A DNA stretch of 64,000 bases from Planctomycetota bacterium (GTDB lineage Bacteria > Planctomycetota > UBA1135 > UBA2386). Below the pieces are notes generated by a model. It was not told the origin of the DNA, made no database searches, and saw only the letters and a list, made by a program, of their open reading frames with translations. A program made the translations under genes and the position numbers. Below are positions 15,569-61,312 of the stretch, piece by piece. The stretch covers positions 5,120,001 through 5,184,000 of the forward strand of contig OZ245006.1 of NCBI GenBank assembly GCA_965223545.1, in the 5' to 3' direction. The first letter of the stretch is position 1. The number at the start of each line of letters is the position of its first letter.

Positions 15569-15820
15569 GGCAGTGCGTCGAGAGTAGAACCAAGTGCCGG
15601 CCGGCGCGCCTTGGATAATCGTGGGAGACCTCCACGATGCGAGTTGCGGTTCGACCACGCCGACAGACGAGGGTACGCGGCTCATGAAGTTCGCGCGATC
15701 GCGCGCGCACGACCCGTTTCTTTACAGCGCCTGCACGAACTGCAAGGGAGGTGTTTGATATCTCCTAAGTCATGTCAAGGGGTTTTCGCTGGGGCTCGAC
15801 ATCGCGTGTGCACGGCTTGT

Positions 15821-17323
15821 TCAGGACTCTTCCACAAGACCAGGGAAGTGTTCTTGCATGAGATCACCGATCGGGTGAGGTTGACGTGGGGATTCCACGG
15901 CCAGGCCTGTGGCGTCCATTGGGCGGCCACTCAAGTCCCTCGTCGTCGGAGTCCCCACTCGTCCCTGTCGCCGTTGGTCGCGCTCATGCCGCTGTGGCGC
16001 GACGATGCTGCGCGTGAACTTGGCTGCGATGAGCGCGCGCGCGGCAACCTTCGTGAGCTCGTTGCCGTCGGCGTCTCGCAGGACGTAGCGGACTTGCGTC
16101 GACGCCGGCTTGTCATCGGCGCGCTGGCTGTCGCGACGCTTCAGGAGGGCGTAGACGCGGCGCGCCATCTTGCCAGCCAATGCGATGAGGATGAGGTTGT
16201 GGTGATCACCTGCGGCGTAGCGGCGAGCGTAGTACGCCGCGAAATCCGGATCCCACTGGCGAGCGACGTCAGCTGCTAGGTAGAGGTACTTCTTGAGTAC
16301 TCGTTGGCCGGTTTTGGTGATTGGCATCGAGGGGTCGCTCATGCCCGTCTGCTTCCGGCGTGGACACAGTCCGCAGTAGCTCACGAACTTCTTGCCGTTC
16401 GAGAACCGCGCGATGTCGCCTACCAAGGCTTCGATGGCCGCAGCGATCGTGGGACCGACGCCGCGCAGTTGCTCGAGTGTTCGGTCAGGATCGACGCCCA
16501 GGTAGAGCTTCTTGATCTTTGCGTCGAGCTTGCGAACGTCCGTGTTCTTGCGCTCGATCTCATCCAGCTCGTACACCACATCCTCTTGGATGGCCTCGTA
16601 GTCGAACGGCATCTGCCCCGCAGCTCGCAGCTCAGCGTAGTACTCGGCGGCCTGTCGGCAGGACTCGAGCACGCGGTCGACCAAGCACGGGTCATGCGTT
16701 CCCTTGGATCGCTTCGTCAAGAAGCGCTCCAAGCGACTCTTCCCAAGGCCGACCGCTTTCACCGGATCGACGTAGCGCCGCAGAAACCCCATCTTAGCGG
16801 CACTGAACTTCTCTGCCCCCAAGGCCTTCATGAGGCTGGGATTCGCCAGTACCAGTATCGCGTGCACACGACGCTTGTGGTCGCTGAGCTCGCGCGCCAA
16901 CCGCTCACGCCGCTTCACGAGTCGACGGATCGTCGTCTCGTCGGCAGTTGGAACACGCAGCTGGTGGACGCCCTTTGGATCCATCTGCGGCAGACGCGCA
17001 GCGGCCTCGGCGTCTACTACGTCGGTTTTGGTGTGCTTGCTATAGAACTTCCGCAGGTCGCTCAGCTTCTGTGGTTTGCTCACGTAGATCTGGAACCCTG
17101 CGGCGTTCACGTGCGCCGCGATGGGCAGCCACGCCAACCCCGTTGGTTCCATCACGAAGCTCACCGGACCCTCGGCACCTTCCTGTGCACGGCGCAGCAG
17201 AAGGTCAATACCCTCACGGCTGTTCTCGACTGAAAACGGTCTGCCCCGAGACTTCGCACCATCCAGAACGACGGCTCGGTGCTTGCTCCTCAAGCCGAGA
17301 TCCAATCCAACGAATCGATTCAT
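15821..17323 (-). CDS. IS110-family DEDD recombinase/transposase with C-terminal extension
   Basis: VGLDLG (D), VMEPTG (E), KTDVVDA (D,D); Tnp domain LRGVGP...GDIARF....FVSYCGL.P...QTG; IALAGKMAR. Confidence 0.93.
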   Translation of the reverse strand: MNRFVGLDLGLRSKHRAVVLDGAKSRGRPFSVENSREGIDLLLRRAQEGAEGPVSFVMEPTGLAWLPIAAHVNAAGFQIYVSKPQKLSDLRKFYSKHTKTDVVDAEAAARLPQMDPKGVHQLRVPTADETTIRRLVKRRERLARELSDHKRRVHAILVLANPSLMKALGAEKFSAAKMGFLRRYVDPVKAVGLGKSRLERFLTKRSKGTHDPCLVDRVLESCRQAAEYYAELRAAGQMPFDYEAIQEDVVYELDEIERKNTDVRKLDAKIKKLYLGVDPDRTLEQLRGVGPTIAAAIEALVGDIARFSNGKKFVSYCGLCPRRKQTGMSDPSMPITKTGQRVLKKYLYLAADVARQWDPDFAAYYARRYAAGDHHNLILIALAGKMARRVYALLKRRDSQRADDKPASTQVRYVLRDADGNELTKVAARALIAAKFTRSIVAPQRHERDQRRQGRVGTPTTRDLSGRPMDATGLAVESPRQPHPIGDLMQEHFPGLVEES

Positions 17324-17329
17324 GTCCCC

Positions 17330-17615
17330 TCCATGTTCAACGAGTGAGTGTCGACGAGAGGACTCTCCCTACCCGCGCAGTCCGCCTGAGGAGGCGAGTC
17401 GCCAAAACGGTTCGTGTTTCGGGGCCGTGATTTCTCACGCCGCCAATCTCCTAAATCGGGTCCCCCACGCGGGAGGAGAGTCGCAGAACCAAATGAGGGG
17501 CCGCTCGAAGCGCCACCATTGCGGCAGATCGCGAAACCTCTCCGTCGCACGCCGGGGGACCCTAAGCTCTCTTGCGGCCGATGACCAGACTCCCGACACG
17601 ACTCCTGCGGCTGCA
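17330..17615 (-). ncRNA. Candidate bridge RNA of IS110 element 1
   Basis: 9-bp stem 17458-17466/17554-17562, CGTGA-GAAA-TCACG hairpin, and TTAGGAGAT (17446-17454) identical to the element right end (15760-15768). Boundaries approximate. Confidence 0.6.
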
Positions 17616-17795
17616 CCATCGCGCGAGTCTTCCACACCGCTACGGCGCGACGGGTGTGGAGAACTCTAGCTTCGCAGATCATGGAACCACACATACCGTT
17701 GCGGCGGTGGCGCCGAGAGTTCGGCGCCAGTTCCGGCGCCCAACGGGGATTTCGCGGATCGGTCCGGCACTTGGCGGCAAACCGATCTTTGACAG

Positions 17796-20498
17796 ATGAT
17801 GGAACCCGTGCGCGGCAATCCCCGGTTGATCGATCACACTTCCTTTCTGCGTCGCCTGGCCCGCACCCTGGTCGCCCAGGAGGAACTCGCCGAGGATCTG
17901 GTGCAGGAGACCATGCTGGCTGCAATCGAACGACCGCCGGCGGCTGGCTGGGAGTTGAGAGCGTGGTTGGCCGGGGTGCTGCGCAACCGCAACCGCCTGC
18001 AGATGCGCAGGGAGAGGCGACGCAGGGAACGCGAACAGGCCAGGGCCGCTGAGGGTTGGGAACCGTCCGCTAGCGCTCAGGCGGAGCAGCTCGATCTAGC
18101 GCGACACATCCTCGATGCGGTCCACGCCCTGCAGCCGGCGCAGCGCCAAGTCGTCCTGCTGCGGTACTTCGAGGGGCTGCCGCCACGGGAGATTTCGGCC
18201 AGGCTCCGACTACCCGTCAACACCGTTCGCAGCCGCCTCCGCCGAGCAATTCGCCAACTCCGTGCCAAACTCGACCGACAGTACGGGGCGCGTAGCGTAT
18301 GGGTGTGGGTGCTTGTGCCGCAGCTCACCCCACCGCCCACACCCGTTTGCGGCGAGCCTAAGCCGTTGGCGGTGGGGGGCGCCGGGGCGACACTCTGCTC
18401 GGGTGTGTTGTTATTGGCGGCCGCAGTCGGTGTCTCTTTGCTGCCGGGAGCATTCTCCCAGCGGCTCGGTGACAGCGACCAGGTCGTTCCTGTGACCTTC
18501 GCTAACTCACGGCAGGACCGAATGGGTCACGGTCCGGCAAATCGCGACGTGGCGGCCGGCCACGCGCCGGTCATGGGTCCGCCCAGGTTGCTCGTTAAGC
18601 CCGAGGCCGCACCGTTCTTGATCCGAGGTACGGTCCTCGATGCCGGCTCCCGAACGCTGGCAGGCGTGGACATTCGGGCGCGGATGTGGGTTGGATTCAA
18701 CTCCGAGGACGATCCAGAACGGGAGCACGTCCTTTGCAGCGATGCGAACGGTCGTTTCTGTTGGAGACTCGAACGGCCAACGGAAGCGGCTACCGTCGAG
18801 TTCTTTGTCGACGGACTGGGTTACGAATCTTGGCCATTGAGGTCGCGCATCTTTCGTGACCAAGTAGAAGCGCCGTACATCACCCTCAGGGTGGTCTTGC
18901 TCGACTGCGTGATCGTGGGGCGTGTCTTAGGCGCGGGCGGTCTGCCGGTCGCTGCGGCGCAGGTTGGGCGTTCACCGGATGCTCTGCAGGACTGCAATGG
19001 AGACGGTAGTTTCTCCATACCCGGGCCATCGAACCTGCCGCTGGTCTACGTCTTCGCCAAGGCACCAGGCTACGCCATCGCGCGCGTTGCGCTTCGTACG
19101 GGCGGAAGTGGATCTTGTAATCGGGCGCAGATTCAGCTGCGACCGCGCGTCGTGCTACAGGGCCGCGTGCGAGACGGCTCAGGCAATGGCATTGCCGGGG
19201 CGCGCGTGCGCACGTTCTACTCGCACAATCCCGATGCGACAACCGATGCAGATGGGCGCTACGAGCTCCTGCTCGACGCGAGACGTCGTTACGACAAGAT
19301 CTTCGCCAGCTATCCGGGGTACGCACGTTCCACCGCCCGAATAGCAATTGGATCGAAGGATTTGATGCTGAGAGATCTTGTTCTGGAGCCCGGAGTTGCT
19401 TTGCGCGGCCACGTATTCGACGAAATGGGACGCCCATTGTCCGGCGCGGAGGTCTATTTCGGTGCAGGGCCAAATGATTCCGCTCGGGTTCACGGATTAT
19501 CGCGGGATGATGGGAGTTTCGAGCTACTCGACCTACCCTCGCGGAGGCGTCTGCTTGTTACGAGCAAGACGGGTTATGCCCCGGATGTTCGCCAGCTGCT
19601 CCCGGCGGGATTGTCGGCGCGCGTCGTTCTTGCGCAAGGACAGTCGGTGCAAGGCACGGTAGTCGATCACGAGGGGCAACCGCTGCCAGGAATCCGACTC
19701 AACGCCTTGCAGCGAGTCGGGGAAGACTTGGTTAGTCTCGAGATGCATAGCGCGAGCGATGCCAGTGGCCGTTTCTACTTCGGGCAATTGCCGGTAGGAC
19801 CGCTCGTGCTTTCGAGCTACGCCGAAGGTTATCGGGGCAGCGAAATCGAGCTCGGCCATCCACGACCCGAAGAAATACGAGTCAAGATCTCGCGGGCAGG
19901 TTCGCTCGCCGGTCGCGTGCTCGACGCGCGCACTGGGACACCCGTGGAGTCGTTCTGTGTGCGTTTACTGGAAGCTTTGCCGGGTCCGGGCGAGAAGCCC
20001 GGTTCGGCTGCCGGCTCGACCTGGGCACGCGAAGGCTACACCTTTTCTGCAGGCGACGGATACTGGAGTACGGCCGGTACCAACCTCGAGTCCGCGGCGG
20101 CGTTCATAGTTCAAGCCAGTTCTCCGGGCTACGCGCCAGCGTTCGCCAAGGCAGTCAGTAGGCCCGAGCCTGAGCTTCTTGTTCTACACCTCCAACCGGA
20201 GGCCAGTATCAGAGGCATCGTAACCGTCGGCGAGGCAGCCCAACCGTTGGAGGGTGCCTTGGTGACATTATCTGGTGGTTCGGCTGCGCACCGCGAGATC
20301 CTCGCCGAGGATAGCTATCGTCGCGTGCTCGCGCGTACCGGGCCTGACGGACGGTTCCAGCTCAAAGCCGGAGCAGGCAGGTTGCTGCTCGAGGTGCAGC
20401 ACCCGACTTGCGCCACCCGTATCGACGGACCATTCGAAGTCGCCCCGGGAGGTACCGTGAATCGCGTCATCCACGTTCGGGCTGGTGTCCCCAATTAG
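17796..20498 (+). CDS. ECF sigma factor fused to TM helix and repeated carboxypeptidase-regulatory-like (Ig-like) domains
   Basis: AEDLVQET, LRAWL, LRYFEGL...EIS.RL..PVNTVRSRLRRA; then TM and repeated GxVxDxxGxPxxGA / TDxxGRF modules. Confidence 0.85.
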   Translation: MMEPVRGNPRLIDHTSFLRRLARTLVAQEELAEDLVQETMLAAIERPPAAGWELRAWLAGVLRNRNRLQMRRERRRREREQARAAEGWEPSASAQAEQLDLARHILDAVHALQPAQRQVVLLRYFEGLPPREISARLRLPVNTVRSRLRRAIRQLRAKLDRQYGARSVWVWVLVPQLTPPPTPVCGEPKPLAVGGAGATLCSGVLLLAAAVGVSLLPGAFSQRLGDSDQVVPVTFANSRQDRMGHGPANRDVAAGHAPVMGPPRLLVKPEAAPFLIRGTVLDAGSRTLAGVDIRARMWVGFNSEDDPEREHVLCSDANGRFCWRLERPTEAATVEFFVDGLGYESWPLRSRIFRDQVEAPYITLRVVLLDCVIVGRVLGAGGLPVAAAQVGRSPDALQDCNGDGSFSIPGPSNLPLVYVFAKAPGYAIARVALRTGGSGSCNRAQIQLRPRVVLQGRVRDGSGNGIAGARVRTFYSHNPDATTDADGRYELLLDARRRYDKIFASYPGYARSTARIAIGSKDLMLRDLVLEPGVALRGHVFDEMGRPLSGAEVYFGAGPNDSARVHGLSRDDGSFELLDLPSRRRLLVTSKTGYAPDVRQLLPAGLSARVVLAQGQSVQGTVVDHEGQPLPGIRLNALQRVGEDLVSLEMHSASDASGRFYFGQLPVGPLVLSSYAEGYRGSEIELGHPRPEEIRVKISRAGSLAGRVLDARTGTPVESFCVRLLEALPGPGEKPGSAAGSTWAREGYTFSAGDGYWSTAGTNLESAAAFIVQASSPGYAPAFAKAVSRPEPELLVLHLQPEASIRGIVTVGEAAQPLEGALVTLSGGSAAHREILAEDSYRRVLARTGPDGRFQLKAGAGRLLLEVQHPTCATRIDGPFEVAPGGTVNRVIHVRAGVPN

Positions 20499-23518: not shown

Positions 23519-25849
23519 CTACTCGGGAGTGATGCGAAACGCCGCCACGCCGTGGCGGGGGACCTCGAGAGTACAGACGTGGTGGGGCGCCTTGTGCGCC
23601 GAGCTCCAGAGCTCGACTCGATACTCGCCCGGCGCGATGTCATTGCCGGCGAAAGCGCCGGAGCCGGCTTCGACCGGCAGCGTGTGCATGCGGCGCGCTT
23701 CGTCGGCGACGGTCGAGGTCATCACCACCCAGAAGCGCTGCTCTTTCTCGAGCAGGGTGGGGTCGACGGTGCCGCGCACGGACACGGGGTCCGGCGGCGC
23801 CGGTGCGTTGGTCGGCGGTGCTGCCTCCGCAGCCGACAGCAGCCAACTCAGCTGCGCTTGCAGGCGTTCGAGGTCGAAGTTGGTTGCCGGCGCGGCGCCG
23901 ACCTTCGGGTTCCAGATCAGCGTGGCGTCGGGAGTGAGCTCGCGCAGCTCGACGGCGGCGGTGTTGCCGGTCCGCGCGTCGAACGCGGCCAACAGTGTTG
24001 GACCCGCTCCCACGCCGGTGAGCGCGAAGCTGCCGTCATGCGCGGTGCGCGCGAGACGCCAGCCGATGGCGGCATCGAGCCGGCGGTCCACGGCGGCCAC
24101 GATCAGCGCACGAGGGGCGGCGCCATCCGCGGCCATCGCCTGTCCGCGCACCGTCGCGCCCGGCAGCAGAGCGAGGTCGACTTCCGCCGGCGGCACCTCG
24201 CCGACCGCGATCTCGAGCCGGGCTTGGTGGCCGCGACCGTCGCTCACGCAGAGCAGATACCGCGCCGGTGCCAGCGCGGCGAACTCGAACTTGCCGCTGG
24301 CGTCCGGCCGACAGAAGCGAGCCGGGAAGCGGCGCGCTTCTGGCGCCAACGGGTACGCCGCAACCAGCGCGGGGTGGCGCGCGTCGGTCCCGCTCAAAGC
24401 TCCTCGCAATCCCTGGCCGTTGGCGACGGTGAGCACCACCGGTTCGGCGGGTGGTTGCCGCAGGTCGATCCTGGCGAACGGCGACACGCCGCCGTCCACC
24501 GTCTCCGCCCACAGCCGAGTGCGGCGGCTCTGCGCCAGCGCGACCGCGAAGCTGCCGTCGGCGCCCGCCTCCGCGAGGGGCATCGGCGGATAGAGCGCGC
24601 GCCCCCCGCTCTCGGAACAATAGAGACGGGCGTACGGGGCGGTTTCGCCGTGCTGATCGACGACTCGCCCGCGCACGATCGCGTGGCGGCCGAGCTCGAT
24701 GCGCCAATCGGTATCCTCGCGCAGAGTGCGGGCAACCGACCCCTGGCTGTCGCTGAAGCGAACGCGCACGGTGCTGCCGGCGGGGACGCGGAAGCGCGCG
24801 TAGCCGCCGCCGTCCGTGACCGCGCGGTGCACACTGTGGAACGTAGTGCGCAGGGTCGGCAGTTCCGCCGATTCGGCGAGCGCCAGCCCGATGGCAACTC
24901 CTTCGACGCCACGGTGCGCGGCGTCGACTGCGCGCACGCGGACGTCGATCTCGGTGTTCTCGGGGGTGCTAGTGTCGGTGTTTTGGGGCGCCGCGTCGCC
25001 GATCGCGGCGCGGGCCAGTGGCGTTGCGGAACCGCCAGTGCCCGGGTTGTCCCCGGCCGCGCTGTCCGGCGCGCGCGCGGCCGGCGGTGCGCTGCTCGGC
25101 GCCGGCCACCACGCCCACGCTCCGGCACCGAGGATCACCGCGGCGACCGCAGCCGCGGTCCACCCCCACTGCCGCACACCGAGCGGGGTTGCCGCCGGCG
25201 GTTGCGCGCCCGCTGCGCCGGCCGCTCCGGATGCGTACTTTGCCACTGCCTGCGCCGCCAGTCGCTCGATGCCGAACATGCCCAGCGCCGCCGCGGTCAT
25301 GCCGGCGGGCATCGCGGTCCGCAGCTGTTCGATACCCCGCGCGATCTGCGTGCGCACCGTGCTGGGTGTGCGCTGTAGGCGCGAGGCGATGGCATTGGCG
25401 GGCACTTGCTCGACGTAGTAGAGGTGCACGACTTCGCGGTACGTGGAGGGCAGCGCTCCGACGCTCCGCATCACCGTCTCGCGCGCCTCTTGCAGCGCCG
25501 CGTTCTCGCCCGGGTCTTCGCCATCGACGACCTCACCGCTCAGGTGGGTCGTGCCGCGCCGCCGCTGGGTGCGCCGCGACATCCGCACCTTGTTCTGCAT
25601 GATCCCGCGCAGCCACCCGACGAACGACTGGCCGGGGTCGAAGCGCGCCGCGGACAGGATGGCGGACAAGTAGGTCTCCTGGACCAGGTCCTCGATGTCG
25701 GCAGGGTTTGCCCGCGTCCGGCGCGCTTGCCGGACCATGTCGCCGCTCGTGCGGTCGAACAGCTCGGCAAACAGCTGTGGATCGCCGCTCTCTCGATACT
25801 CCACGAACAGGTCTTCGACCGAGTTTGCGGGGGGAAGGGGGGTGGGCAT
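23519..25849 (-). CDS. ECF sigma factor with TM helix and extracytoplasmic carboxypeptidase-regulatory-like repeats
   Basis: IEDLVQETYL...FDP...FVGWL; LP..YREVV.L.Y...IA..L....STVRTQIARG; TM AAAVAAVILGAGAWAWW. Confidence 0.85.
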   Translation of the reverse strand: MPTPLPPANSVEDLFVEYRESGDPQLFAELFDRTSGDMVRQARRTRANPADIEDLVQETYLSAILSAARFDPGQSFVGWLRGIMQNKVRMSRRTQRRRGTTHLSGEVVDGEDPGENAALQEARETVMRSVGALPSTYREVVHLYYVEQVPANAIASRLQRTPSTVRTQIARGIEQLRTAMPAGMTAAALGMFGIERLAAQAVAKYASGAAGAAGAQPPAATPLGVRQWGWTAAAVAAVILGAGAWAWWPAPSSAPPAARAPDSAAGDNPGTGGSATPLARAAIGDAAPQNTDTSTPENTEIDVRVRAVDAAHRGVEGVAIGLALAESAELPTLRTTFHSVHRAVTDGGGYARFRVPAGSTVRVRFSDSQGSVARTLREDTDWRIELGRHAIVRGRVVDQHGETAPYARLYCSESGGRALYPPMPLAEAGADGSFAVALAQSRRTRLWAETVDGGVSPFARIDLRQPPAEPVVLTVANGQGLRGALSGTDARHPALVAAYPLAPEARRFPARFCRPDASGKFEFAALAPARYLLCVSDGRGHQARLEIAVGEVPPAEVDLALLPGATVRGQAMAADGAAPRALIVAAVDRRLDAAIGWRLARTAHDGSFALTGVGAGPTLLAAFDARTGNTAAVELRELTPDATLIWNPKVGAAPATNFDLERLQAQLSWLLSAAEAAPPTNAPAPPDPVSVRGTVDPTLLEKEQRFWVVMTSTVADEARRMHTLPVEAGSGAFAGNDIAPGEYRVELWSSAHKAPHHVCTLEVPRHGVAAFRITPE

Positions 25850-39226: not shown

Positions 39227-42142
39227 ATGCAGCGAGCTCTTCATTGGTGGTGTCTCCTCGTGTGTGCGCTGGCGCCGGCCGGCGCCGCGCAGGAGTTGCC
39301 GGTCTCCGAGGCGTTGGCGCGGGCGGTGGTCTTGGACGAGCAAGAGCACGACGCGCGGGGTGCCCTCGCCGCCTATCTCGCGGTCGCGGATGACGAGGCC
39401 GAGGGGGATGGTGTGCGCCGGCACGCGGCGCTGCGCGCGGCGGTGATCCAGCGGCGGCTCGGCGTCGACGAGGCCGAAGTGCGCGCGCTGCTGGAGCGCG
39501 CGATCGGTGGGGAGGGAGTGGCTGCCGATGATGGAGTGGCGGAACGTGCGCGGGCGCTGTTGGCGCAGCCGCTGGAGGCGGAGGCGAGGGCGCGGGAGCT
39601 GCACGCGCGCGCGGCGGCGCTGTGCGCGCGCATTGCCGACACGCCGGGGCAGGAGGCGGAGCTCGTGCAGGATCTGCTGTGGTTGGGAGAAGCGGCGGTC
39701 CCCGCGGTGATCGATGCGCTTTCGACCGCGCTGGATCAACCGTACGCCGGCGCCCCTCGCAGCGTCGTGTTTGCGCAAGTTCTGTGGCAGTTGGGGGGGA
39801 CGCGTGCGGCGGCTTTCCTGCGCCGGAAGCGCGATGCACCGGAGGAGCACCGGCTCGTGCTCGCGGAAGCCAGCAGAGTGGTGGCGCCCGACCTGGTTGA
39901 AGAGCACGCGGCACTCCTCGTCGATGCGGATGCGGCCGTGGTCCAAGCTGTCGTGGACCGCTTGCCGAAGCACGGCGTGACGCTGCGGCCGGCCCAGCTG
40001 GTCGCGGCGTTGGACCATGAGTCCGTCGAGGTCAGAGTTCGAGTTCTCGAGTACCTGCGGGGGCACCTGCACTTCTGCGAGGGCGCGCGAATGTCGGCGT
40101 TCGTCGAGCGTCTGGTGCCGCGACTGGGGCTCGCCCTGGACAGCGTCGATCCGGCCGAGGGCCGGGTGGCGGTGCGCGTCCTGCGTGCAATCGCAATGCA
40201 GACCCGTTCGTCTCGCCACCTGCTGATGGATCGATTGACGAGCGGGCCGCTGACGGGGGCGCAGCGCGACGCCTTGGTTCTGTCCAACGGCCAGACGTAC
40301 GAGCCGCGCGTCCCGGTCTCGATCGGGTCCGCCGAGGACGTCGATCGCGTCGGTGCGATGCTTGTCGCGTTGCGGGACTCGGTCGATGGTGAGTCCGCGG
40401 GTACTCTCTCGAACGGTCTCATCCCCCAGCTACTGAAGCTCTACATGAACGCGTGGCAGCGGCCAGCGCTGCCCGTGGTCGTGAGTGCATACCAGCTCCG
40501 TGCACTGCACCCGAATCTGGTCTACCAGTGGCTGCGCGACCACGCGGCCGCGGACGACGTCGCCGAGGTCCTCGGGCAGATCGAGGGCATGCCGTTCGAC
40601 CCTTCTCTGCTCAACGCGCTGCCAACGGGTGCCGCGCACTGGCCGTTGATTCGCGCTTGGGCAGAGCGTTCCGGTGTGCAGCCGGGGGGGGACGGCGACG
40701 CCGTTGCCGCTGTGCTGTACCGGGCGAGTCGGGCCGCGACACCGGATGCATTGGCGCTGGTGCGGGCGTGGTTGAGCCGGCCGGCAGTCGCCAAGCACTG
40801 GGAGGCTTGTCTCAGCGGACTGCTGGAGTCTGGCGGACAGTCCAATGCCCCCGGCGTGGCGGCGTTGATGCACGAATTGGCAGTGTGGCCGGTCGAGGAC
40901 AGTTCGCGCGAGCACCGGTTTCGCAACGGCGTGGTCGCGTGGCTGACCCGGCAGGGCGACGTGCGCCTGGCAGAGATCACCGAGGCGGTGGTCTCCATGG
41001 TTGGGAATCACCAGGACTCCTACGTCCCCGGCGTGGATGCGTCCCGCGTAGAGCAGGCGCTGCCGCTGACGCCCGGTGGTACCCGTCAGGCCCGCCGGTG
41101 GCCGACCGGGGCGGAGTGGCTCATCGCCGGCGCGTGGCGCGGCAACGTCTGGCAGCCGTGGCACGGCTTCGACGAAGCCCAGTGGATCGAGCTGCTTCGG
41201 CCTCGGGCAAGCAACGACCTCAAGTTTGCCGCGCGCGCCTTTGCTGCGGGAGGCAGCGCGCAGGGTTACGGCGTGGCCACTCCAGCTCTGGTCGACCTGG
41301 TCGCGGAGGTCTGCCTGCGCGCGCTGCGTGCGGGGCGCGCGGACAAGTTGCTGCACGACGCAGCGCGTGCGGTGCTCGGCGCCGCCCGGCAGGCGGCCTA
41401 TGAGGGCGAGCGCGTCGGCACGCTTTGGCGGGAGCTCTTGTTGTCCGGGCAAGCGCAGCTGCAGAAGGCCGCGCTGGGATGGCTCGCCGGTCCGCCGGAG
41501 CCCGCCCAACACCGCACGCTGCTCGATGCGCTCGGCCGGACGGTCGACCGGCAAGTCGCCGAGGAGATCGCCGCCGCGCTGCGCACGGGCGGCGCCGAGC
41601 TCTCGGTCGAGGACTTGGCCCGGGCCCTGCAGAGCGATCGAGCGCCGGTGCTGGAGGTGGTGTTGGCCAAGCTCGCGCCGCAGCTCGGGGCGGCCGCGCT
41701 GCCGCAAGTGTTGCCGGTGCTACAGCGCGAGCCGGGTGCCGTCCGCGCCGCCGCCTGCGCCTATCTCGGCAGCCTCGGCGACCTCCGCGCCGTGCCGCCC
41801 CTGCTGGTCGCGCTGCGCGATGCCGATGCCGGTGTGCGCGCCGCGGCGACCGAGGCGCTGCGCGCGGTGCGCTTCTACCACGAGCAGAAGGCGCACTGGG
41901 ATCGCGTCGCCGCTGGCCAACCGCAGTTGTCCAGCCAGGCCGCCGCGGCGGCGCTGCTGCAGCAGGCCTCCGCCGATCAGCCGCGCGCGCGTCGGCTGCT
42001 GGCGATCGCGGCGTTGGGCCGGCTCGGGGTGCCCGAGGCGTTGCCGCAGCTGATCGAGTGGGTCGACGACGCTGATGCGGAGATTGCGGCGGCTGCGACC
42101 GCGGCCATCGCGCAGGTCCAAGCCGGCGGCAAGGCGCGGTAG
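39227..42142 (+). CDS. Exported HEAT-repeat protein
   Basis: Signal peptide; VRAAAC.YLG.LGD.RAVPPLLVAL.D.D.GVR.AA.EAL repeats. Confidence 0.72.
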   Translation: MQRALHWWCLLVCALAPAGAAQELPVSEALARAVVLDEQEHDARGALAAYLAVADDEAEGDGVRRHAALRAAVIQRRLGVDEAEVRALLERAIGGEGVAADDGVAERARALLAQPLEAEARARELHARAAALCARIADTPGQEAELVQDLLWLGEAAVPAVIDALSTALDQPYAGAPRSVVFAQVLWQLGGTRAAAFLRRKRDAPEEHRLVLAEASRVVAPDLVEEHAALLVDADAAVVQAVVDRLPKHGVTLRPAQLVAALDHESVEVRVRVLEYLRGHLHFCEGARMSAFVERLVPRLGLALDSVDPAEGRVAVRVLRAIAMQTRSSRHLLMDRLTSGPLTGAQRDALVLSNGQTYEPRVPVSIGSAEDVDRVGAMLVALRDSVDGESAGTLSNGLIPQLLKLYMNAWQRPALPVVVSAYQLRALHPNLVYQWLRDHAAADDVAEVLGQIEGMPFDPSLLNALPTGAAHWPLIRAWAERSGVQPGGDGDAVAAVLYRASRAATPDALALVRAWLSRPAVAKHWEACLSGLLESGGQSNAPGVAALMHELAVWPVEDSSREHRFRNGVVAWLTRQGDVRLAEITEAVVSMVGNHQDSYVPGVDASRVEQALPLTPGGTRQARRWPTGAEWLIAGAWRGNVWQPWHGFDEAQWIELLRPRASNDLKFAARAFAAGGSAQGYGVATPALVDLVAEVCLRALRAGRADKLLHDAARAVLGAARQAAYEGERVGTLWRELLLSGQAQLQKAALGWLAGPPEPAQHRTLLDALGRTVDRQVAEEIAAALRTGGAELSVEDLARALQSDRAPVLEVVLAKLAPQLGAAALPQVLPVLQREPGAVRAAACAYLGSLGDLRAVPPLLVALRDADAGVRAAATEALRAVRFYHEQKAHWDRVAAGQPQLSSQAAAAALLQQASADQPRARRLLAIAALGRLGVPEALPQLIEWVDDADAEIAAAATAAIAQVQAGGKAR

Positions 42143-42181
42143 CGGGGGCCGCGATTGATGAATCGGAGCCTGACCTGAAAC

Positions 42182-43564
42182 TCACCCAGCCTCGGCGATC
42201 GGTATGAGCTTGTACCCGAGGGATTTAGCGTTCTGTCGGAGTCCGACGATGCGTCGCTGGGTGAAGCGCTCCTCGTAGGCCTTGGCGCCTTCGTCTACGT
42301 AGTCCTGGCCGAACTTCAGCATGCGGTAGATGAGCAGGGCCAGTTTGCGGGCGATGGCAAAGATGGCGACGTTGCCGTCCTTCGCGCGGGCGATCTTGCG
42401 GAAGTGTGCGCCGAGAGCTGTCTGAGTACGTTGGAGGGACAGGGCGGCCATCCGGAGGACCGTGGCGATCCTGCTGACCGCGATGTTGTTGCGGTGCTTC
42501 TTGATGCGCTTTCCACCCGAGACGGCTTGACGTGGGCACAGGCGTAGCCAGGAGACGAAGTGCTTCTCGGTCGGGAAAGCTTCGAGGTCGTAGCCGACCT
42601 CGGTGAGCACGATCATGGCCGTGCTCGGGCTGATACCGTCGATTCGCGTGAGATCACACCCGACGAGCCGGCAGAGGGCATCGCGAAGCTCCCGGCCGCC
42701 CTTCGTTCGGATGCTCCTCTCCTTGCGGGGGTCTGGATGCTCGGGGACGTCGGCCGTCTTGGCTTCCTCCGGTTGCAGGTCCTCGATCATCGCCATCAAT
42801 CGCTTCTCGACCGACTCGATCTCGTGGTCGGTGTGCTCGAGCATCCGCAAGCCCGAAGCGAGAGTGAAGATGTGCTCCTCGATCCAGGTCCCTTGCAAGT
42901 GATCCGCGAGCTCCTTCTCGGAGATCTTGCAGCGCGGATCACGCAGTCTGGCGAGCGCTCGAGGGTCGCGTTCACCAGCGAGAATCGCGCGGATGATCGC
43001 GAGGCCGGTCTTGCCGGTGATGTCCGTTACCGCGCGATGGATCGCCACGTTCATCTGATCCAGTGACCGCTGCATCAACTGCGTGTGGCGCGTGCGCTGC
43101 GCGATCAAAGACGCGGCATGGCGTTGCAGGGTCCGCAACGCACAGATGTCCTTCGGAGGCCGGAACGAAGCGCGAATGAGGCCATAGGTGTGTAGCTTCT
43201 GCAGCCAACTGCAATCGCTGGCATCGGACTTGGAGCGGCCCGGCACGTTCTTCACCTCGCGGGCATTCGCGAGGATGACCTCGAAGCCTCTCGACTCGAG
43301 TAGCTCGTAGACGGGAATCCAGTAGACATAGGTGCTCTCCATCGCGACGGATCGCACTCCGAGCTCCTCCAGCCAGTCCGCGAGCGCCTCTAGCTGGGGC
43401 GTCGTCGTTCCGAATCGCTTGATCGGACGACTGCCGTCGGGTGCTGCTGCGCACACCCAGTGCTCGCGGCTGCCGATGTCGATTCCGGCGGCGTTGGGCT
43501 TCACGACTGGCAATACTTCCGCTGCGGGCTTCTTGCCCTTCCTCGTTCTGCTCTTCCCAGCCAT
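42182..43564 (-). CDS. IS110-family recombinase/transposase (copy A)
   Basis: AGIDIG, AMESTY, KSDASD; IDGIS...F....FVSWL.LCP...SGGK; AIARKLA. Protein identical to 59897..61279. Confidence 0.95.
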   Translation of the reverse strand: MAGKSRTRKGKKPAAEVLPVVKPNAAGIDIGSREHWVCAAAPDGSRPIKRFGTTTPQLEALADWLEELGVRSVAMESTYVYWIPVYELLESRGFEVILANAREVKNVPGRSKSDASDCSWLQKLHTYGLIRASFRPPKDICALRTLQRHAASLIAQRTRHTQLMQRSLDQMNVAIHRAVTDITGKTGLAIIRAILAGERDPRALARLRDPRCKISEKELADHLQGTWIEEHIFTLASGLRMLEHTDHEIESVEKRLMAMIEDLQPEEAKTADVPEHPDPRKERSIRTKGGRELRDALCRLVGCDLTRIDGISPSTAMIVLTEVGYDLEAFPTEKHFVSWLRLCPRQAVSGGKRIKKHRNNIAVSRIATVLRMAALSLQRTQTALGAHFRKIARAKDGNVAIFAIARKLALLIYRMLKFGQDYVDEGAKAYEERFTQRRIVGLRQNAKSLGYKLIPIAEAG

Positions 43565-43814
43565 ACTTCATCCTCATTGTTGTGGTGGGCCCGGCCCGAG
43601 GCGGCGATCAAACGAATCTGACCTGCGGGAGTGGGCACGGCGACGTGCCCCTCACCAGTGAAGGATGGCCAACTCGGACCCAGACTGGCTCTGGGGCAAA
43701 CGTGCTCCAGTGGCTATTGGGGGCGTAGCTGCCGGGCCCCTCACACGTTCCCCTCCCCCTTCCTCAGCGGCTAGTTTCCTGCCCTGAAGGGCCGACAAAT
43801 CTGCCGGGGCAGGA
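43565..43814 (-). ncRNA. Candidate bridge RNA, IS110 element 2 copy A
   Basis: Same non-coding left end as copy B. Confidence 0.6.
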
Positions 43815-43828
43815 CTGGCTCCGTACTT

Positions 43829-44776
43829 TCAGCGCAAGCGTGTGAGGGTGGTGTGGCGGGCGGCGAGGAAGTCGCGGTAGGCGCGGGAATCGCCGACTGC
43901 CTTCTCTAGCGCGGCGAGGCCTTCCGCGTAGAGGTCGAGGTCGGGCTTGTCGCGCGTTTCGAGGTAGAGCAGGATGCCGCCCCAGAAGTCGCGGGACGGG
44001 TTGCGGGCCACCGGGCGCTTGCCGGCGCGCCACATCGCGTAGAGCTGGCGGCCGACGTCGGCGCGGCCGGCTTCGTCGAAGCGGTCGTGCGCGGCGAGGA
44101 GGTCGAGCACTTCGAGGTCGGTCAGATAGCCGGCGACGCGGTCGGCGTCGGCGGGCGGCAGCGCGCCGGCGCGGGCCAGGAGCTGGCGGGCGGAATCGAG
44201 GTCGAGCGTGCGCTGCTCGACGCCGCGCAGCAGCAGGCGACGGTAGGCGGCGGCGACCGTGTTCTCGGTTTCGCGTTCGGCTTGCAGGAAGCTCTGCGCG
44301 CGGTCGACGAGGCCGCGCAGCTCCGCGACCGACTTCTCTCGCCAGCTGGGGTGCTGGCCGAGAATGCGGCCGCTGGCGTCGAGCACGGCGTGGTGCGGCC
44401 AGCCGCTGCCGCCGTGTGCGAACAGCAGTTGGTCGTAGCCGGCATCGAGATGCGCGGTGACGTGGCAGTAGAGCACGACGTCGCTGGCCAGCGCGGCGAA
44501 CTCGGGTGCCGAAAGGACCTGCCGCTCGCAGCGGATCGAGGTGCCGCAGGGCACGTAGCTGCGGGTGAAGTGGGCGAGGATCAGCTTGCCCTCGCGGGCG
44601 GCCACCTGCCGCGCCTTGTCCAGATCCGTGTGCCACTCCGCGCGGGTCACGAACGGCGCCGCGAGCTTGTCGTGCCGGCGCGCGCGCAGCGTTTCGGGGG
44701 CGGTCGAATCTTGGCATGGAGCCGGGGCCGCGGCGAAGGCCAAGGCGAGGGCGAAGGAGGTCGGCGGAAGTCGCAT
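43829..44776 (-). CDS. Exported thioredoxin-like fold protein
   Basis: Signal peptide; WHTDLDKA..VA.REGKLILAHFTRSYVPC; GGSGWP...VLDA.G. Its TGA stop begins the palindrome arm flanking IS110 copy A. Confidence 0.65.
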   Translation of the reverse strand: MRLPPTSFALALAFAAAPAPCQDSTAPETLRARRHDKLAAPFVTRAEWHTDLDKARQVAAREGKLILAHFTRSYVPCGTSIRCERQVLSAPEFAALASDVVLYCHVTAHLDAGYDQLLFAHGGSGWPHHAVLDASGRILGQHPSWREKSVAELRGLVDRAQSFLQAERETENTVAAAYRRLLLRGVEQRTLDLDSARQLLARAGALPPADADRVAGYLTDLEVLDLLAAHDRFDEAGRADVGRQLYAMWRAGKRPVARNPSRDFWGGILLYLETRDKPDLDLYAEGLAALEKAVGDSRAYRDFLAARHTTLTRLR

Positions 44777-57921: not shown

Positions 57922-59697
57922 ATGGCACATGGCTTCGTTCGCTCGCTCGTCCCAGCCCTGGTCTTGATACCGGCACTGGCCGCAGCCACCCAAGACCGGT
58001 CGCAGCGGGCAGCCGAGGAACGTGCGCTGATCGAGGGGGCAGTGGGCGATCCGCTGTCGCAGCGCGCGGCCGAGGCGTTCAACAAGCGCGACTGGCAGGA
58101 GGCCGAGCGAGCCTACGCCGCGCTCGTCGAGCGGGACCCGGCCGACGAGCGCGCTTGGTTGCGGCTCGGAACGGCACTGCACGCGCAGCAGAAGCTGGAC
58201 GCGGCGCTGCGGGCGTACGAGCACGCACTGGACTTCCCCAGCGCTGCCTACAACGCCGCTTGCATCCATGCGCTGCGCGGCGCTACGGACTTGGCACTCG
58301 ACCGGCTCCGCTCCGCGGTTGAAGTTGGGTTCCTCGATTTCGAGCACGCGCGGCGCGACCCGGATCTGTCGAACCTGCACGAAGACCCGGCCTTCGCGGC
58401 CGTGCTCGCGGCGATGGAGCGGCGGATGAAGACGCCGCTGCCCGAGGCGGTCCTCGGTCAGGCCGCGCCCGACTTCGAGCTCACCGACGTCGACGGCCGA
58501 CGCCATCGGCTCGAGTCGTACCGTGGGCGAATCGTCGTCCTCGAATGGACGAGCCACACGTGCCCGACGGTTGCACGCTACCACGAGTCGGCGAGACTGC
58601 CGGCGTCGGTCGCCGGTGTGACCGGCGATGACCTCGTGTGGCTCGCCATCGACTCCGGCGCAGAATGTGACGAGTGGGTCGACGCGATCCGAGAGTGGCG
58701 CTCGACGGTCGGCCACCGCCGCCCCTACCTGCTGGACCCATCGGGCGCGACGGGTCACCGCTACGGAGCGCAGGCGACACCTCAGATTTTCGTGATCGAC
58801 GGTTCCGGAGTGCTGCGCTACTCGGGGACTGTCGACGACGAAGGCGCGACCATCGACTACGTCGCCGCGACGGTCGCGGCGTTGCGCGAGGGTCGCGACC
58901 CGGCACCGACTTCCACCGAGCTCCGTGGCTGCACGATCAAGTACGCATCGGTGCTGCCAGGATTCGTCGCTGCCGACGTGTGGCAGTGCCCGCCCTGCGG
59001 CCTGCCGTGCGATCGCATCGTGTTCGCGACGCCGGGCCGCTGCCCGCAGTGTCGCATGGTCCTGGCCGCTCGAGTGCGGCGCAACGTGCAGACCGCGGCG
59101 AAGCCACACGCACAGCCGTTGTTCGACGCGGCCCGGATCGCCGCAAGAGCGGGTGAAGCGCAGCCGTGTCTCGCGAGCTTGCGTGCCGCGTTGGTCGCCG
59201 GCTTCGCGACACCCTCCAGGGTTCTGAGCGACGACGCGTTCGCCCCGCTGCTCGCCGTGCCCGAACCGCGCGCGGCGCTCCGCGAGCTGTTGGCCGAGTT
59301 CGCGAGCGAGTCGACGGCGACCATTGTCCGCAGCACGGAGCCCGGCAATCGCCTGCGGCTCGAGCTCACGATTCATGAAGCGGCGGGTACGCCCGTCGTC
59401 GACGCGCGCGTGGACCTGTACCAGACCGACGCTGCGGGCATCTACGATCCGGTGCACGGTTCGGAGAACCCACGTCTGTTCGCCAGCCTCGTTAGCGATC
59501 GCGACGGCCGCCTGGTCATCGACACGATCGTGCCCGCGGGCTACCCGGACGCGGACGTCTCCCCGCACGTTCACTACGTCGTCGAGACTGCCGGCGGGAC
59601 ACGCGACAGCGGCGAGATCGTGAGGAGAGTGACGGTACGGAGCCAGTCCTGCCCCGGCAGATTTGTCGGCCCTTCAGGGCAGGAAACTAGCCGCTGA
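57922..59697 (+). CDS. Multidomain exported protein: TPR + redoxin + CxxC metal-binding + intradiol-dioxygenase-like; 3' end reads into IS110
   Basis: TPR (AWLRLG..L, YNAAC..AL.G), APDFELTD.DG...VVLEWTSHTCP, WQCPPC...C...PGRCPQC.M, YQTDAAG.Y..., TIVP..YP...PHVHY; last 17 or so codons come from the IS left end. Confidence 0.78.
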   Translation: MAHGFVRSLVPALVLIPALAAATQDRSQRAAEERALIEGAVGDPLSQRAAEAFNKRDWQEAERAYAALVERDPADERAWLRLGTALHAQQKLDAALRAYEHALDFPSAAYNAACIHALRGATDLALDRLRSAVEVGFLDFEHARRDPDLSNLHEDPAFAAVLAAMERRMKTPLPEAVLGQAAPDFELTDVDGRRHRLESYRGRIVVLEWTSHTCPTVARYHESARLPASVAGVTGDDLVWLAIDSGAECDEWVDAIREWRSTVGHRRPYLLDPSGATGHRYGAQATPQIFVIDGSGVLRYSGTVDDEGATIDYVAATVAALREGRDPAPTSTELRGCTIKYASVLPGFVAADVWQCPPCGLPCDRIVFATPGRCPQCRMVLAARVRRNVQTAAKPHAQPLFDAARIAARAGEAQPCLASLRAALVAGFATPSRVLSDDAFAPLLAVPEPRAALRELLAEFASESTATIVRSTEPGNRLRLELTIHEAAGTPVVDARVDLYQTDAAGIYDPVHGSENPRLFASLVSDRDGRLVIDTIVPAGYPDADVSPHVHYVVETAGGTRDSGEIVRRVTVRSQSCPGRFVGPSGQETSR

Positions 59698-59896
59698 GGA
59701 AGGGGGAGGGGAACGTGTGAGGGGCCCGGCAGCTACGCCCCCAATAGCCACTGGAGCACGTTTGCCCCAGAGCCAGTCTGGGTCCGAGTTGGCCATCCTT
59801 CACTGGTGAGGGGCACGTCGCCGTGCCCACTCCCGCAGGTCAGATTCGTTTGATCGCCGCCTCGGGCCGGGCCCACCACAACAATGAGGATGAAGT
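59647..59896 (+). ncRNA. Candidate bridge RNA, IS110 element 2 copy B
   Basis: Stems TCCTGCCC/GGGCAGGA, GGGCCCGGC(59722-59730)/GCCGGGCCC(59866-59874), GGGCACG/CGTGCCC; target-like GAGCCAG (59770-59776); donor-like CAGGTCAG (59836-59843). Confidence 0.65.
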
Positions 59897-61279
59897 ATGG
59901 CTGGGAAGAGCAGAACGAGGAAGGGCAAGAAGCCCGCAGCGGAAGTATTGCCAGTCGTGAAGCCCAACGCCGCCGGAATCGACATCGGCAGCCGCGAGCA
60001 CTGGGTGTGCGCAGCAGCACCCGACGGCAGTCGTCCGATCAAGCGATTCGGAACGACGACGCCCCAGCTAGAGGCGCTCGCGGACTGGCTGGAGGAGCTC
60101 GGAGTGCGATCCGTCGCGATGGAGAGCACCTATGTCTACTGGATTCCCGTCTACGAGCTACTCGAGTCGAGAGGCTTCGAGGTCATCCTCGCGAATGCCC
60201 GCGAGGTGAAGAACGTGCCGGGCCGCTCCAAGTCCGATGCCAGCGATTGCAGTTGGCTGCAGAAGCTACACACCTATGGCCTCATTCGCGCTTCGTTCCG
60301 GCCTCCGAAGGACATCTGTGCGTTGCGGACCCTGCAACGCCATGCCGCGTCTTTGATCGCGCAGCGCACGCGCCACACGCAGTTGATGCAGCGGTCACTG
60401 GATCAGATGAACGTGGCGATCCATCGCGCGGTAACGGACATCACCGGCAAGACCGGCCTCGCGATCATCCGCGCGATTCTCGCTGGTGAACGCGACCCTC
60501 GAGCGCTCGCCAGACTGCGTGATCCGCGCTGCAAGATCTCCGAGAAGGAGCTCGCGGATCACTTGCAAGGGACCTGGATCGAGGAGCACATCTTCACTCT
60601 CGCTTCGGGCTTGCGGATGCTCGAGCACACCGACCACGAGATCGAGTCGGTCGAGAAGCGATTGATGGCGATGATCGAGGACCTGCAACCGGAGGAAGCC
60701 AAGACGGCCGACGTCCCCGAGCATCCAGACCCCCGCAAGGAGAGGAGCATCCGAACGAAGGGCGGCCGGGAGCTTCGCGATGCCCTCTGCCGGCTCGTCG
60801 GGTGTGATCTCACGCGAATCGACGGTATCAGCCCGAGCACGGCCATGATCGTGCTCACCGAGGTCGGCTACGACCTCGAAGCTTTCCCGACCGAGAAGCA
60901 CTTCGTCTCCTGGCTACGCCTGTGCCCACGTCAAGCCGTCTCGGGTGGAAAGCGCATCAAGAAGCACCGCAACAACATCGCGGTCAGCAGGATCGCCACG
61001 GTCCTCCGGATGGCCGCCCTGTCCCTCCAACGTACTCAGACAGCTCTCGGCGCACACTTCCGCAAGATCGCCCGCGCGAAGGACGGCAACGTCGCCATCT
61101 TTGCCATCGCCCGCAAACTGGCCCTGCTCATCTACCGCATGCTGAAGTTCGGCCAGGACTACGTAGACGAAGGCGCCAAGGCCTACGAGGAGCGCTTCAC
61201 CCAGCGACGCATCGTCGGACTCCGACAGAACGCTAAATCCCTCGGGTACAAGCTCATACCGATCGCCGAGGCTGGGTGA
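59897..61279 (+). CDS. IS110-family recombinase/transposase (copy B)
   Basis: DEDD motifs and SGGK serine motif; identical to 42182..43564. Confidence 0.95.
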   Translation: MAGKSRTRKGKKPAAEVLPVVKPNAAGIDIGSREHWVCAAAPDGSRPIKRFGTTTPQLEALADWLEELGVRSVAMESTYVYWIPVYELLESRGFEVILANAREVKNVPGRSKSDASDCSWLQKLHTYGLIRASFRPPKDICALRTLQRHAASLIAQRTRHTQLMQRSLDQMNVAIHRAVTDITGKTGLAIIRAILAGERDPRALARLRDPRCKISEKELADHLQGTWIEEHIFTLASGLRMLEHTDHEIESVEKRLMAMIEDLQPEEAKTADVPEHPDPRKERSIRTKGGRELRDALCRLVGCDLTRIDGISPSTAMIVLTEVGYDLEAFPTEKHFVSWLRLCPRQAVSGGKRIKKHRNNIAVSRIATVLRMAALSLQRTQTALGAHFRKIARAKDGNVAIFAIARKLALLIYRMLKFGQDYVDEGAKAYEERFTQRRIVGLRQNAKSLGYKLIPIAEAG

Positions 61280-61312
61280 GTTTCAGGTCAGGCTCCGTAC
61301 CGTCACCCCTAC

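Follow-up and report, generated by a model that had tools for sequence, protein, structure and literature searches.

The question raised by this locus is whether an IS110-group element can be moved by a bridge RNA when its end and its target have no bases in common at the point of exchange. Genome-editing tools are under development from bridge recombinases, and the chief sequence constraint on them is that donor and target must have a core in common; a natural clade that tolerates C, G, or T in the target at the nick, with the donor unchanged, would remove this constraint. The locus lies in a 64,000-nucleotide stretch of a Planctomycetota genome (the window, in whose numbering all positions are given), and an earlier note described it as an IS110 at 15760–17619 with a two-loop bridge RNA and an AT core. 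Here, the feature at 15758–17697 is found to be a genuine IS110 with an upstream two-loop bridge RNA, and we consider it likely (probability about 0.8) that this IS110-group element is mobilised, by top-strand copy-out, through coreless recombination guided by its bridge RNA.

The 500-aa product passes the IS110 family model NF033542 (NCBIfam) with 208.7 bits against a cut-off of 140, in agreement with the earlier identification of the ORF as an IS110 transposase, and all motifs named in the earlier note lie where it placed them. The host genome (8.1 Mb, 70% GC) carries 11 identical copies, and the element is, judging by these, recently active. Positions 15754–17705 are common to all 11 copies, the outer 8 and 4 bases being host DNA; public contigs collapse to the identical 1,952 bp. 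The insertion site is GCCGCAAC^CAAA within a REP-like repeat of about 195 bp, often tandem. The target 12-mer, GCCGCAACCAAA, is counted 95 times in the host genome, 93 of these in REP context, and joining the flanks restores it in 11/11 copies; hence, the element comprises 15758–17697 (Table 1). Insertion is thus sequence-specific and without target-site duplication (11/11 copies against 95 empty sites; empty sites were verified in the host genome only, and for the homologs the flanks were taken from short contigs, in which those of different insertions may be joined). The copy in the window is intergenic, and its site is not a full REP.

The comparison of copies with empty alleles, named earlier as the way to place the ends, moves the left end from 17619 to 17697, the position common to 11/11 copies. 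Of the proposed right flank ATCAAA, CAAA is indeed target, and AT turns out to be the last two bases of the element. TCGCGCGAT (17618–17626), taken as the site for a guide TTTCGCGAT, lies about 75 nt inside the element, and therefore its 7/9 match to TTTCGCGAT is not a guide–target pair; a second 9-mer with two mismatches is present in the same 200 bp. The non-coding regions (374 bp before and 63 bp after the ORF) and the RNA in the left end follow the IS110-group layout. Traits of the IS1111 group are absent: reading the ends directly reveals no sub-terminal inverted repeats, and the non-coding region is upstream, not downstream. As stated in the earlier note, the element is unrelated to the other IS110 of that note, its element 2 (about 26% identity over residues 283–417; the ends differ).

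Table 1. Features of the element and its insertion site (all coordinates are those of the window).
Feature	Coordinates	Strand	Basis or remark
IS110 element, 1,940 bp	15758–17697	-	starts GGTAT, ends TTAGGAGATAT; 11 identical copies
Target left half GCCGCAAC, host DNA	17698–17705	-	found in 95 empty sites
Target right half CAAA, host DNA	15754–15757	-	copies and empty sites
Transposase/recombinase, 500 aa	15821–17323	-	PF01548 and PF02371; DEDD RuvC domain, Tnp domain, C-terminal extension
Thr326 codon, at the IS621 Ser241 position	16346–16348	-	HMM alignment of KQ[S/T]G with ESG
-35 hexamer TTGACA of predicted circle-junction promoter	15773–15778	-	17 nt from left-end TAT once ends are joined
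RNA strand A, closes target-binding loop by pairing with B	17538–17553	-	folding
Left target guide GCCGCAA (target -8 to -2)	17519–17525	-	covariation 165 vs 87 permuted, n = 27
Hairpin within target-binding loop	17497–17517	-	compensatory pairs
Right target guide TTTG-GTT (target -3 to +4)	17487–17493	-	91/96 bases vs 34 permuted, n = 24
RNA strand B, pairs with A or alternatively C	17466–17480	-	folding
Left donor guide TTAGGAGAT (donor -11 to -3)	17446–17454	-	9/9 here; 176/216 vs 163 permuted, n = 24
Hairpin within donor-binding loop	17421–17445	-	compensatory pairs
Right donor guide ACC-GTT	17406–17411	-	predicted pairing: ACC with element GGT; GTT with target AAC after strand exchange
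RNA strand C, alternative partner of B, encloses donor loop	17363–17379	-	folding
Left donor site: 9-mer 15760–15768 and terminal AT	15758–15768	-	end sequences, homologs
Right donor site: GGT 17695–17697 and -10-like TATGTG 17690–17695	17690–17697	-	homologs, joined ends
DnaA-box-like motif 1, TTCTCCACA, 1 mismatch	17655–17663	-	shares TCTCCACAC with host dnaA–dnaN box
DnaA-box-like motif 2, separated by 18 nt from motif 1 (head-to-head)	17628–17636	+	pair can form hairpin
DnaA-box-like motif 3, at ORF end	15828–15836	+	on 11-bp ladder of homologs' right-end boxes

A close homolog is absent from 40 related genomes with the query used (best about 31–36% identity); one of the 40 has 19 intact targets and only a distant IS110, and this transposase was not found in it. 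Circle-junction joints were not seen in contig sets X1, X2, and X5 (X1 and X2 possibly derive from the source sample itself), contigs being known to drop rare forms. A phylum-wide search for the left-junction 13-mer is uninformative, its matches (44/401 genomes) being at the level of the reversed control. Copy orientation shows no clear strand bias relative to replication.

For the analysis of the RNA we used 85 homologous loci (5 of 8 from one search and all 80 kept of 93 from another). Guides were parsed in 39 sequences of at least 37% identity, this element included; L056 (too short) and L029 (no donor guide) were dropped, and the remaining 37 sequences collapse to 29 distinct guide sets, with the end length of L031 and the guide columns of L079 set by hand. 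As proposed in the earlier note, the region upstream of the transposase encodes a two-loop bridge RNA, in which four guides are found, and by sequence comparison these guides covary with the flanks or ends across the 29 homologous guide sets. Both loops, with the common scaffold recognised earlier, are present in the consensus fold, and 20 of the 35 predicted pairs have compensatory changes. TTTGGT(T) is the right target guide, as suggested; the left target guide is GCCGCAA and not TTTCGCGAT; and a right donor guide, reported as missing, exists (ACCGTT). The 9-mer TTAGGAGAT is the left donor guide and occurs twice in the window against 0.03 expected; its end copy, however, is sub-terminal, 2 nt (AT) before the right end 15758. 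As to its covariation with the end, asked for in the earlier note, the score is 176/216 against 163 permuted (n = 24): the 9-mer is largely invariant, and it matches at 9/9 in this element only. Among the homologs, L040 fits neither guide at position -1, and L045 has a poor left target guide match (3/7). A suspected 10-bp duplication in the L049 clade was discarded, the guides showing that the target itself is a direct repeat.

Strand B can pair with A or C in all 29 sets (means of -29 and -28 against -21 and -19 kcal/mol across elements), the A–B closing stem dominating in 24/27. This alternative may stabilise a processed donor-loop RNA; a translation switch was also considered and found no support (blocking A lowered ribosome-site accessibility in 6/27, raised it in 1, and had no effect here). 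A comparison of the element with Rfam gave no match near the gathering score.

At the crossover, the target reads AAC followed by CAA; the element ends in TAT and begins with GGT. Zero bases are common to the two, and hence there is neither a duplication nor a core. We discarded a GCCGCAAA target with CAA or AA as the core, since the empty site commonly seen is the 12-mer, to which the right target guide is matched. At positions -2/-1 the target has AC and the donor AT, without the shared core of IS621 type; the AT core of the earlier note therefore does not hold for this element, AT being shared in 8 of the 23 homologs having both ends. Among these 23, the dinucleotide is shared in 9 (8 AT, 1 AC) and unshared in 14. 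The core states interleave on a quick ML tree: this element has C against T in L038, L030–L035 have C against T in L034, and C stands against G in another clade.

A shared core could be rescued if the true target were a rare REP variant holding GGTAT, so that the element starts at 17692–17694 and recombines at a shared AT or TAT, a scheme near to that of the earlier note. Two such empty-looking sites exist, TAT is found near both ends, and donor-loop ACAC could, by direct reading, pair with GTGT just inside the boundary. This pairing, however, is not conserved among homologs; in 27 homologs whose targets are unrelated the element begins with GGTAT/TGTAT (a motif that also served to find the left ends of homologs, which partly presupposes TAT at +3), and the guide ACC/ACA follows this start, the ACC part of the right donor guide giving 79/81 matches to the donor; the right target guide is perfectly complementary to the common target; and the RNA has no sense copy of AACGGT. 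In addition, one of the variant sites lies in a tandem array whose neighbour unit has an intact target, and the variant is missing from the relative with 19 intact targets. We regard such a target as very improbable and retain the coreless crossover.

The bases that would guide a core behave accordingly in the alignment. The three bases following ACC in the right donor guide track the target (60 matches against 38 permuted, p = 5e-5) and not the donor (43 against 41 permuted, p = 0.26), although the homologs are kin rather than independent, and hence these p values overstate the case. In 26/27 cases the donor guide correctly gives the target base at position -1; the donor base there is T in 21/23. 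Judged by this covariation, the "core" bases of the donor loop follow the target base, not the element's own end. All 22 junctions of the 11 copies keep target AAC on the left and donor TAT on the right. Core loss alone is not new, since insertion without duplication is known and surveys admit IS110 elements without a predicted core (10.64898/2026.10.21.760802). In the literature searched (most subscription journals, supplements, and figures lie outside its coverage), we found no report of target-tracking core guides, of scars such as those described below, or of a threonine nucleophile. The clade suggests a design rule, namely that donor-loop bases should match the target. A mismatched core is also a natural strand marker: the 22/22 junctions carry the top-strand sequence, an observation relevant to the debate on whether Holliday-junction exchange or top-strand copy-out takes place.

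In the mechanism that we favour, the right and left ends would be joined on the top strand into a circle, and the circle junction would create a promoter for the RNA and the transposase. The target loop would then bind the REP site and the donor loop the junction, and the top strands would exchange after cleavage at position 0 through a phospho-threonine link. Of the donor guide, the three bases serving as "core" guide in IS621 would be mismatched with the donor until exchange and then paired with the target; the former core guide bases would in this way act as handshake guides driving insertion, an extension of the handshake rule described for donor-loop pairing (PMC11208158, PMC13626964). 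Replication or repair would fix the top-strand sequence at both junctions, as read in the 22 junctions. DnaA might serve to prime the circle, in the manner of an A-site hairpin, to open the ends, or, as in Tn5 ends, to regulate expression. Top-strand copy-out is reported for CazIS110-1 (10.1101/2025.10.25.684509) and IS621 (10.64898/2026.08.31.748434).

Several known systems share parts of this scheme. IS621 and ISCro4 (IS622), as described, have the DEDD and Tnp domains, the fold, the upstream two-loop RNA, and the four guides (PMC11208160, PMC11208158, PMC13626964), and also a junction promoter, a REP target, and a donor loop that pairs with target bases in handshake fashion; they differ in sequence (about 21% identity) and length (about 326 aa against 500 aa here). 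The CT core of IS621 is described as invariant (PMC13626964), whereas the element here has no shared core; IS621 has Ser241 where this protein has Thr; the left guides here end 0–2 nt before the nick; and the DnaA-box-like end motifs and alternative A–B/B–C closing stems are further differences. The element is thus not of IS621 type, as both the shared core and the catalytic serine were looked for and neither is present. ISEc21 and other seekRNA elements of IS110/IS1111 likewise have abutted circle ends that form a promoter, and duplicate no target bases (PMC11187229); there, shared bases are counted as part of the IS end, and the available text states no target tracking by the donor loop and makes no mention of Thr or DnaA (PMC11187229). 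CazIS110-1 is another multi-copy long IS110, with its nucleophile at residue 312 (326 here), and its top-strand copy-out and integration fit the junction pattern seen here; it produces loop-only RNAs and, in contrast to this element, has a serine nucleophile (10.1101/2025.10.25.684509). CazIS110-1 may itself be coreless, the word "core" never being used in the available text (10.1101/2025.10.25.684509). ISPpu9 and ISPpu10 also insert into REPs in a stem-loop context; however, they recombine at shared AG or CT dinucleotides (PMC12288879; 10.64898/2026.03.19.712850).

The DEDD residues of the RuvC domain are D8, E59, D101, and D104. The structure model has pLDDT 85, with low confidence in the tail of the C-terminal extension; its best fold matches are ISCro4 and IS621, at about 21% identity, and residues 400–460 match only unnamed clusters in the ESM Atlas. 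The residue equivalent to Ser241, scored in 103 homologous proteins, is T in 43 and S in 52, with 8 unscored (43/95 scorable are T), and the T/S state switches several times on a quick ML tree. As the 11 identical copies imply recent activity, Thr326 is likely the nucleophile, replacing the catalytic Ser of IS621; if true, this would extend IS110 chemistry. Ser329, three residues from Thr326, could be the nucleophile instead.

The earlier reading of TTGACA as the -35 box of a junction promoter agrees with its position: joining the ends places TATGTG 17 nt away, with TG just upstream. The spacing from -35 to TAT is 17 nt in 24/24 right ends, in L031 via a compensating indel, and five homologs have TATAAT at the -10 place. 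A -10, which the earlier note did not find, is thus present, although TATGTG has only 3/6 consensus bases. A promoter scan of the linear element found none, and the promoter is predicted to be rebuilt across the joined ends.

The DnaA-box consensus is TTWTNCACA, from which each of the three motifs in Table 1 has one mismatch, within the limit of at most two for oriC basal unwinding. Across the homologs such boxes concentrate at the ends: 33 in the left 110 bp (4.6 in shuffled sequence; 18/27 elements) and 26 in the right 160 bp (5.8 shuffled; 15/24 elements), against 0.85 per kb in coding regions. The left boxes form a head-to-head pair at +34 to +38 and +62 to +68. At 53 distinct right ends, 35 boxes are on one strand and 3 on the other, with an 11-bp phase (R = 0.72); the peptides they encode are 7-fold enriched in protein tails (75 proteins). 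The head-to-head pair occurs 11 times in the 8.1-Mb chromosome, always within this IS, and in 0/17 other IS110 loci. By identity, it is present in 13/16 loci at 49% or more, 4/20 at 37–48%, and 4/37 below 37%; its absence from 16/20 and 33/37 of the lower-identity loci means that it is not required family-wide. The host has dnaA, and its origin maps to the dnaA–dnaN gap, where a box beside an AT-rich tract shares TCTCCACAC with the left box of the IS (TCTCCACAC has 15 copies outside the IS; the chance of sharing is about 0.001, post hoc). From these patterns, DnaA probably binds the element ends at the level of the family; for this copy, with its degenerate boxes, the odds of binding are even. 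In the literature searched (most subscription journals lie outside it), we found no report of DnaA boxes in IS110 ends.

The boxes could also be something other than DnaA sites, namely an RNA 5' hairpin or sites for the transposase C-terminal domain, with their consensus likeness kept by descent. The left pair does form an inverted repeat that falls within the predicted transcript and folds into a hairpin, the IS621 RNA has a 5' stem-loop (PMC11208160), and many family members have no boxes. What such a reading leaves aside are the perfect TTATCCACA/TGTGGATAA pairs in six loci of 33–52% identity (L036, L039, L063, L064, L065, L067), the right-end ladder, which is outside the RNA, on one strand, and phased by 11 bp, and the identity of the left box with the box of the host dnaA–dnaN gap, at the post hoc chance given above; we consider it improbable.

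DnaA-trios are 3'-GAT-5' repeats beside a box (PMC8287927). Tandem NAG runs of at least 2 occur in 7/17 left spacers (1.4 shuffled), and of at least 3 in 4/17 (5, 5, 4, and 3); 17 of 21 spacers were counted, two alternative registers, L049, and L079 being left out. The longest NAG run of this copy is 1, against the oriC criterion of at least 3 trios within 16 bp of a box. The hairpin stem has 7 bp here and the full 9-bp box stem in L036, L039, L041, L063–L065, and L067. A role of DnaA at the ends in priming or opening the copied element is a tentative suggestion, and one in timing expression is unlikely. DnaA might do nothing but regulate, by controlling the junction promoter or competing with the transposase, as reported for the ends of Tn5, which DnaA binds (PMC3347997). 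The phased array mostly precedes the -35 by 25–81 bp, and the pair comes after the start site, 35–70 bp into the element, as regulation would have it; the TAG runs between the left boxes, in the excess given above, would then go unexplained, and regulation alone seems doubtful to us.

A bolder reading, to which we give rather low credence, is that of a coreless, phospho-threonine subfamily with its own DnaA-dependent mini-origin. The head-to-head boxes would form, on the single-stranded circle that is copied out, a hairpin resembling an A site or, alternatively, combine with the phased right-end array and the trios at the junction; the host initiator would prime double-strand conversion, tying transposition to the initiation of replication. 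That conversion of the single-stranded IS110 circle has been attributed only to "host repair" in the available text (10.64898/2026.08.31.748434). Precedents for the parts are the DnaA box adjoining TAG trios in oriC basal unwinding, matched here in homologs only (PMC8287927), the DnaA box in the stem of a single-stranded hairpin at the ABC-primosome A site (PMC6127211), and the DnaA site in a transposon end in Tn5 (PMC3347997). The putative boxes here differ in belonging to an RNA-guided IS, in being head-to-head and not tandem, and in having a separate phased array at the other end. The end motifs may show how such elements get copied, and the DnaA-like boxes and trios make the double-strand conversion of the circle testable with a few point mutations.

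Finally, two REP copies, at C1:611325 and C1:537464, read GCCGCAACGGTATCAAA, i.e., the target and the first five bases of the element. These are the variant sites discussed above, one of them in a tandem array beside an intact unit, and the variant is absent from the relative with 19 intact targets. Such scars imply real loss of the element via the TAT near both ends, the agent being the transposase, acting in a shifted register, or a host IEE-like AEP-TOTE helicase. It is nearly an even chance that they are host-made deletions between TAT microhomologies, e.g., by an IEE-like primase-helicase during copy-out, and not shifted-register excisions by the transposase: the host encodes an 876-aa AEP-TOTE and SF2 helicase protein, and IEE-type losses use 2–4-bp microhomologies, although IS621 is reported as not excised by IEE (10.1101/2023.06.07.543989). 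The two scars have the same sequence, which points to a directed register and away from a host origin.

The main element, a coreless bridge-RNA IS110, has its target in a REP-like repeat of about 195 bp, present in tandem arrays and in about 100 copies across the host genome. The repeat, which is previously undescribed, has CTCA at its bounds and long inverted arms. Its GCCGCAACCAAA-type motif occurs 19 times in a relative (G018) and is also the target of three homologous IS from unrelated metagenomes (L031, L032, and L037).

Of the copies of the main element, 10 of 11 lie in one replichore of the host chromosome (G000:C1, 4.0–8.1 Mb). Empty targets, i.e., uninterrupted 12-mers, are spread across both replichores (43 vs. 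52), and both scars, REP copies holding the target and the first five bases of the element, lie in the replichore opposite to the one with most copies.

A third IS110-family element of the host, of IS1111 type with sub-terminal inverted repeats, uses the same REP as the main element, but a different insertion site. It is present at the tabulated locus and in three other places; one of these four copies directly adjoins a copy of the main element. For element 2, the unrelated IS110 of the window, the left flank reads GTACGGAGC and the right flank is GCTCCGTAC-like; the two are inverted repeats, and several copies occur in paired or tandem-like contexts.

Among the homolog RNAs, the end of the left target guide varies by clade, at −1, −2, or −3 from the nick, while the loop length is constant. 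In one subclade (L049, L053, L055, L060, L061, and L062), the target is a direct repeat of TGTGCCA with approximately 11-bp spacing, presumably resembling integrase arm-type sites; here, SA, not SG, follows the nucleophile, and the junction carries a perfect TATAAT. The left-target 9-mer, CGGCCGCAA, occurs once more in the main element; this extra copy is not kept in homologs and could be a self-targeting relic or due to chance.

Features of the window and of the host chromosome (G000:C1)
Feature	Coordinates	Strand	Remark
Second copy of CGGCCGCAA	window 17572–17580	−	just upstream of target-binding loop
Large ECF sigma factors with fusions to several carboxypeptidase-regulatory-like domains	window 17796–20498; 23519–25849	+; −	
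Element 2	window ~42100–43850; ~59650–61350		23 copies
Third IS110-family element	G000:C1:614400–615900		4 copies
Primase-helicase L121	G000:C1:1806720–1809350		876 aa; AEP-TOTE primase + SF2 helicase; IEE-like
Candidate oriC, dnaA–dnaN gap	G000:C1:4017000–4017520		GC-skew minimum at 4016777
REP-like repeat (example)	G000:C1:5215624–5216800		

About 100 bp separate the first ECF sigma factor gene from the left end of the main element, which is upstream of it. The dnaA–dnaN gap likely holds the host oriC; DnaA boxes are present there only in degenerate form, and two more matches to the DnaA C-terminal domain are found elsewhere in the genome. The host genome, which encodes the IEE-like protein, is rich in IS elements.
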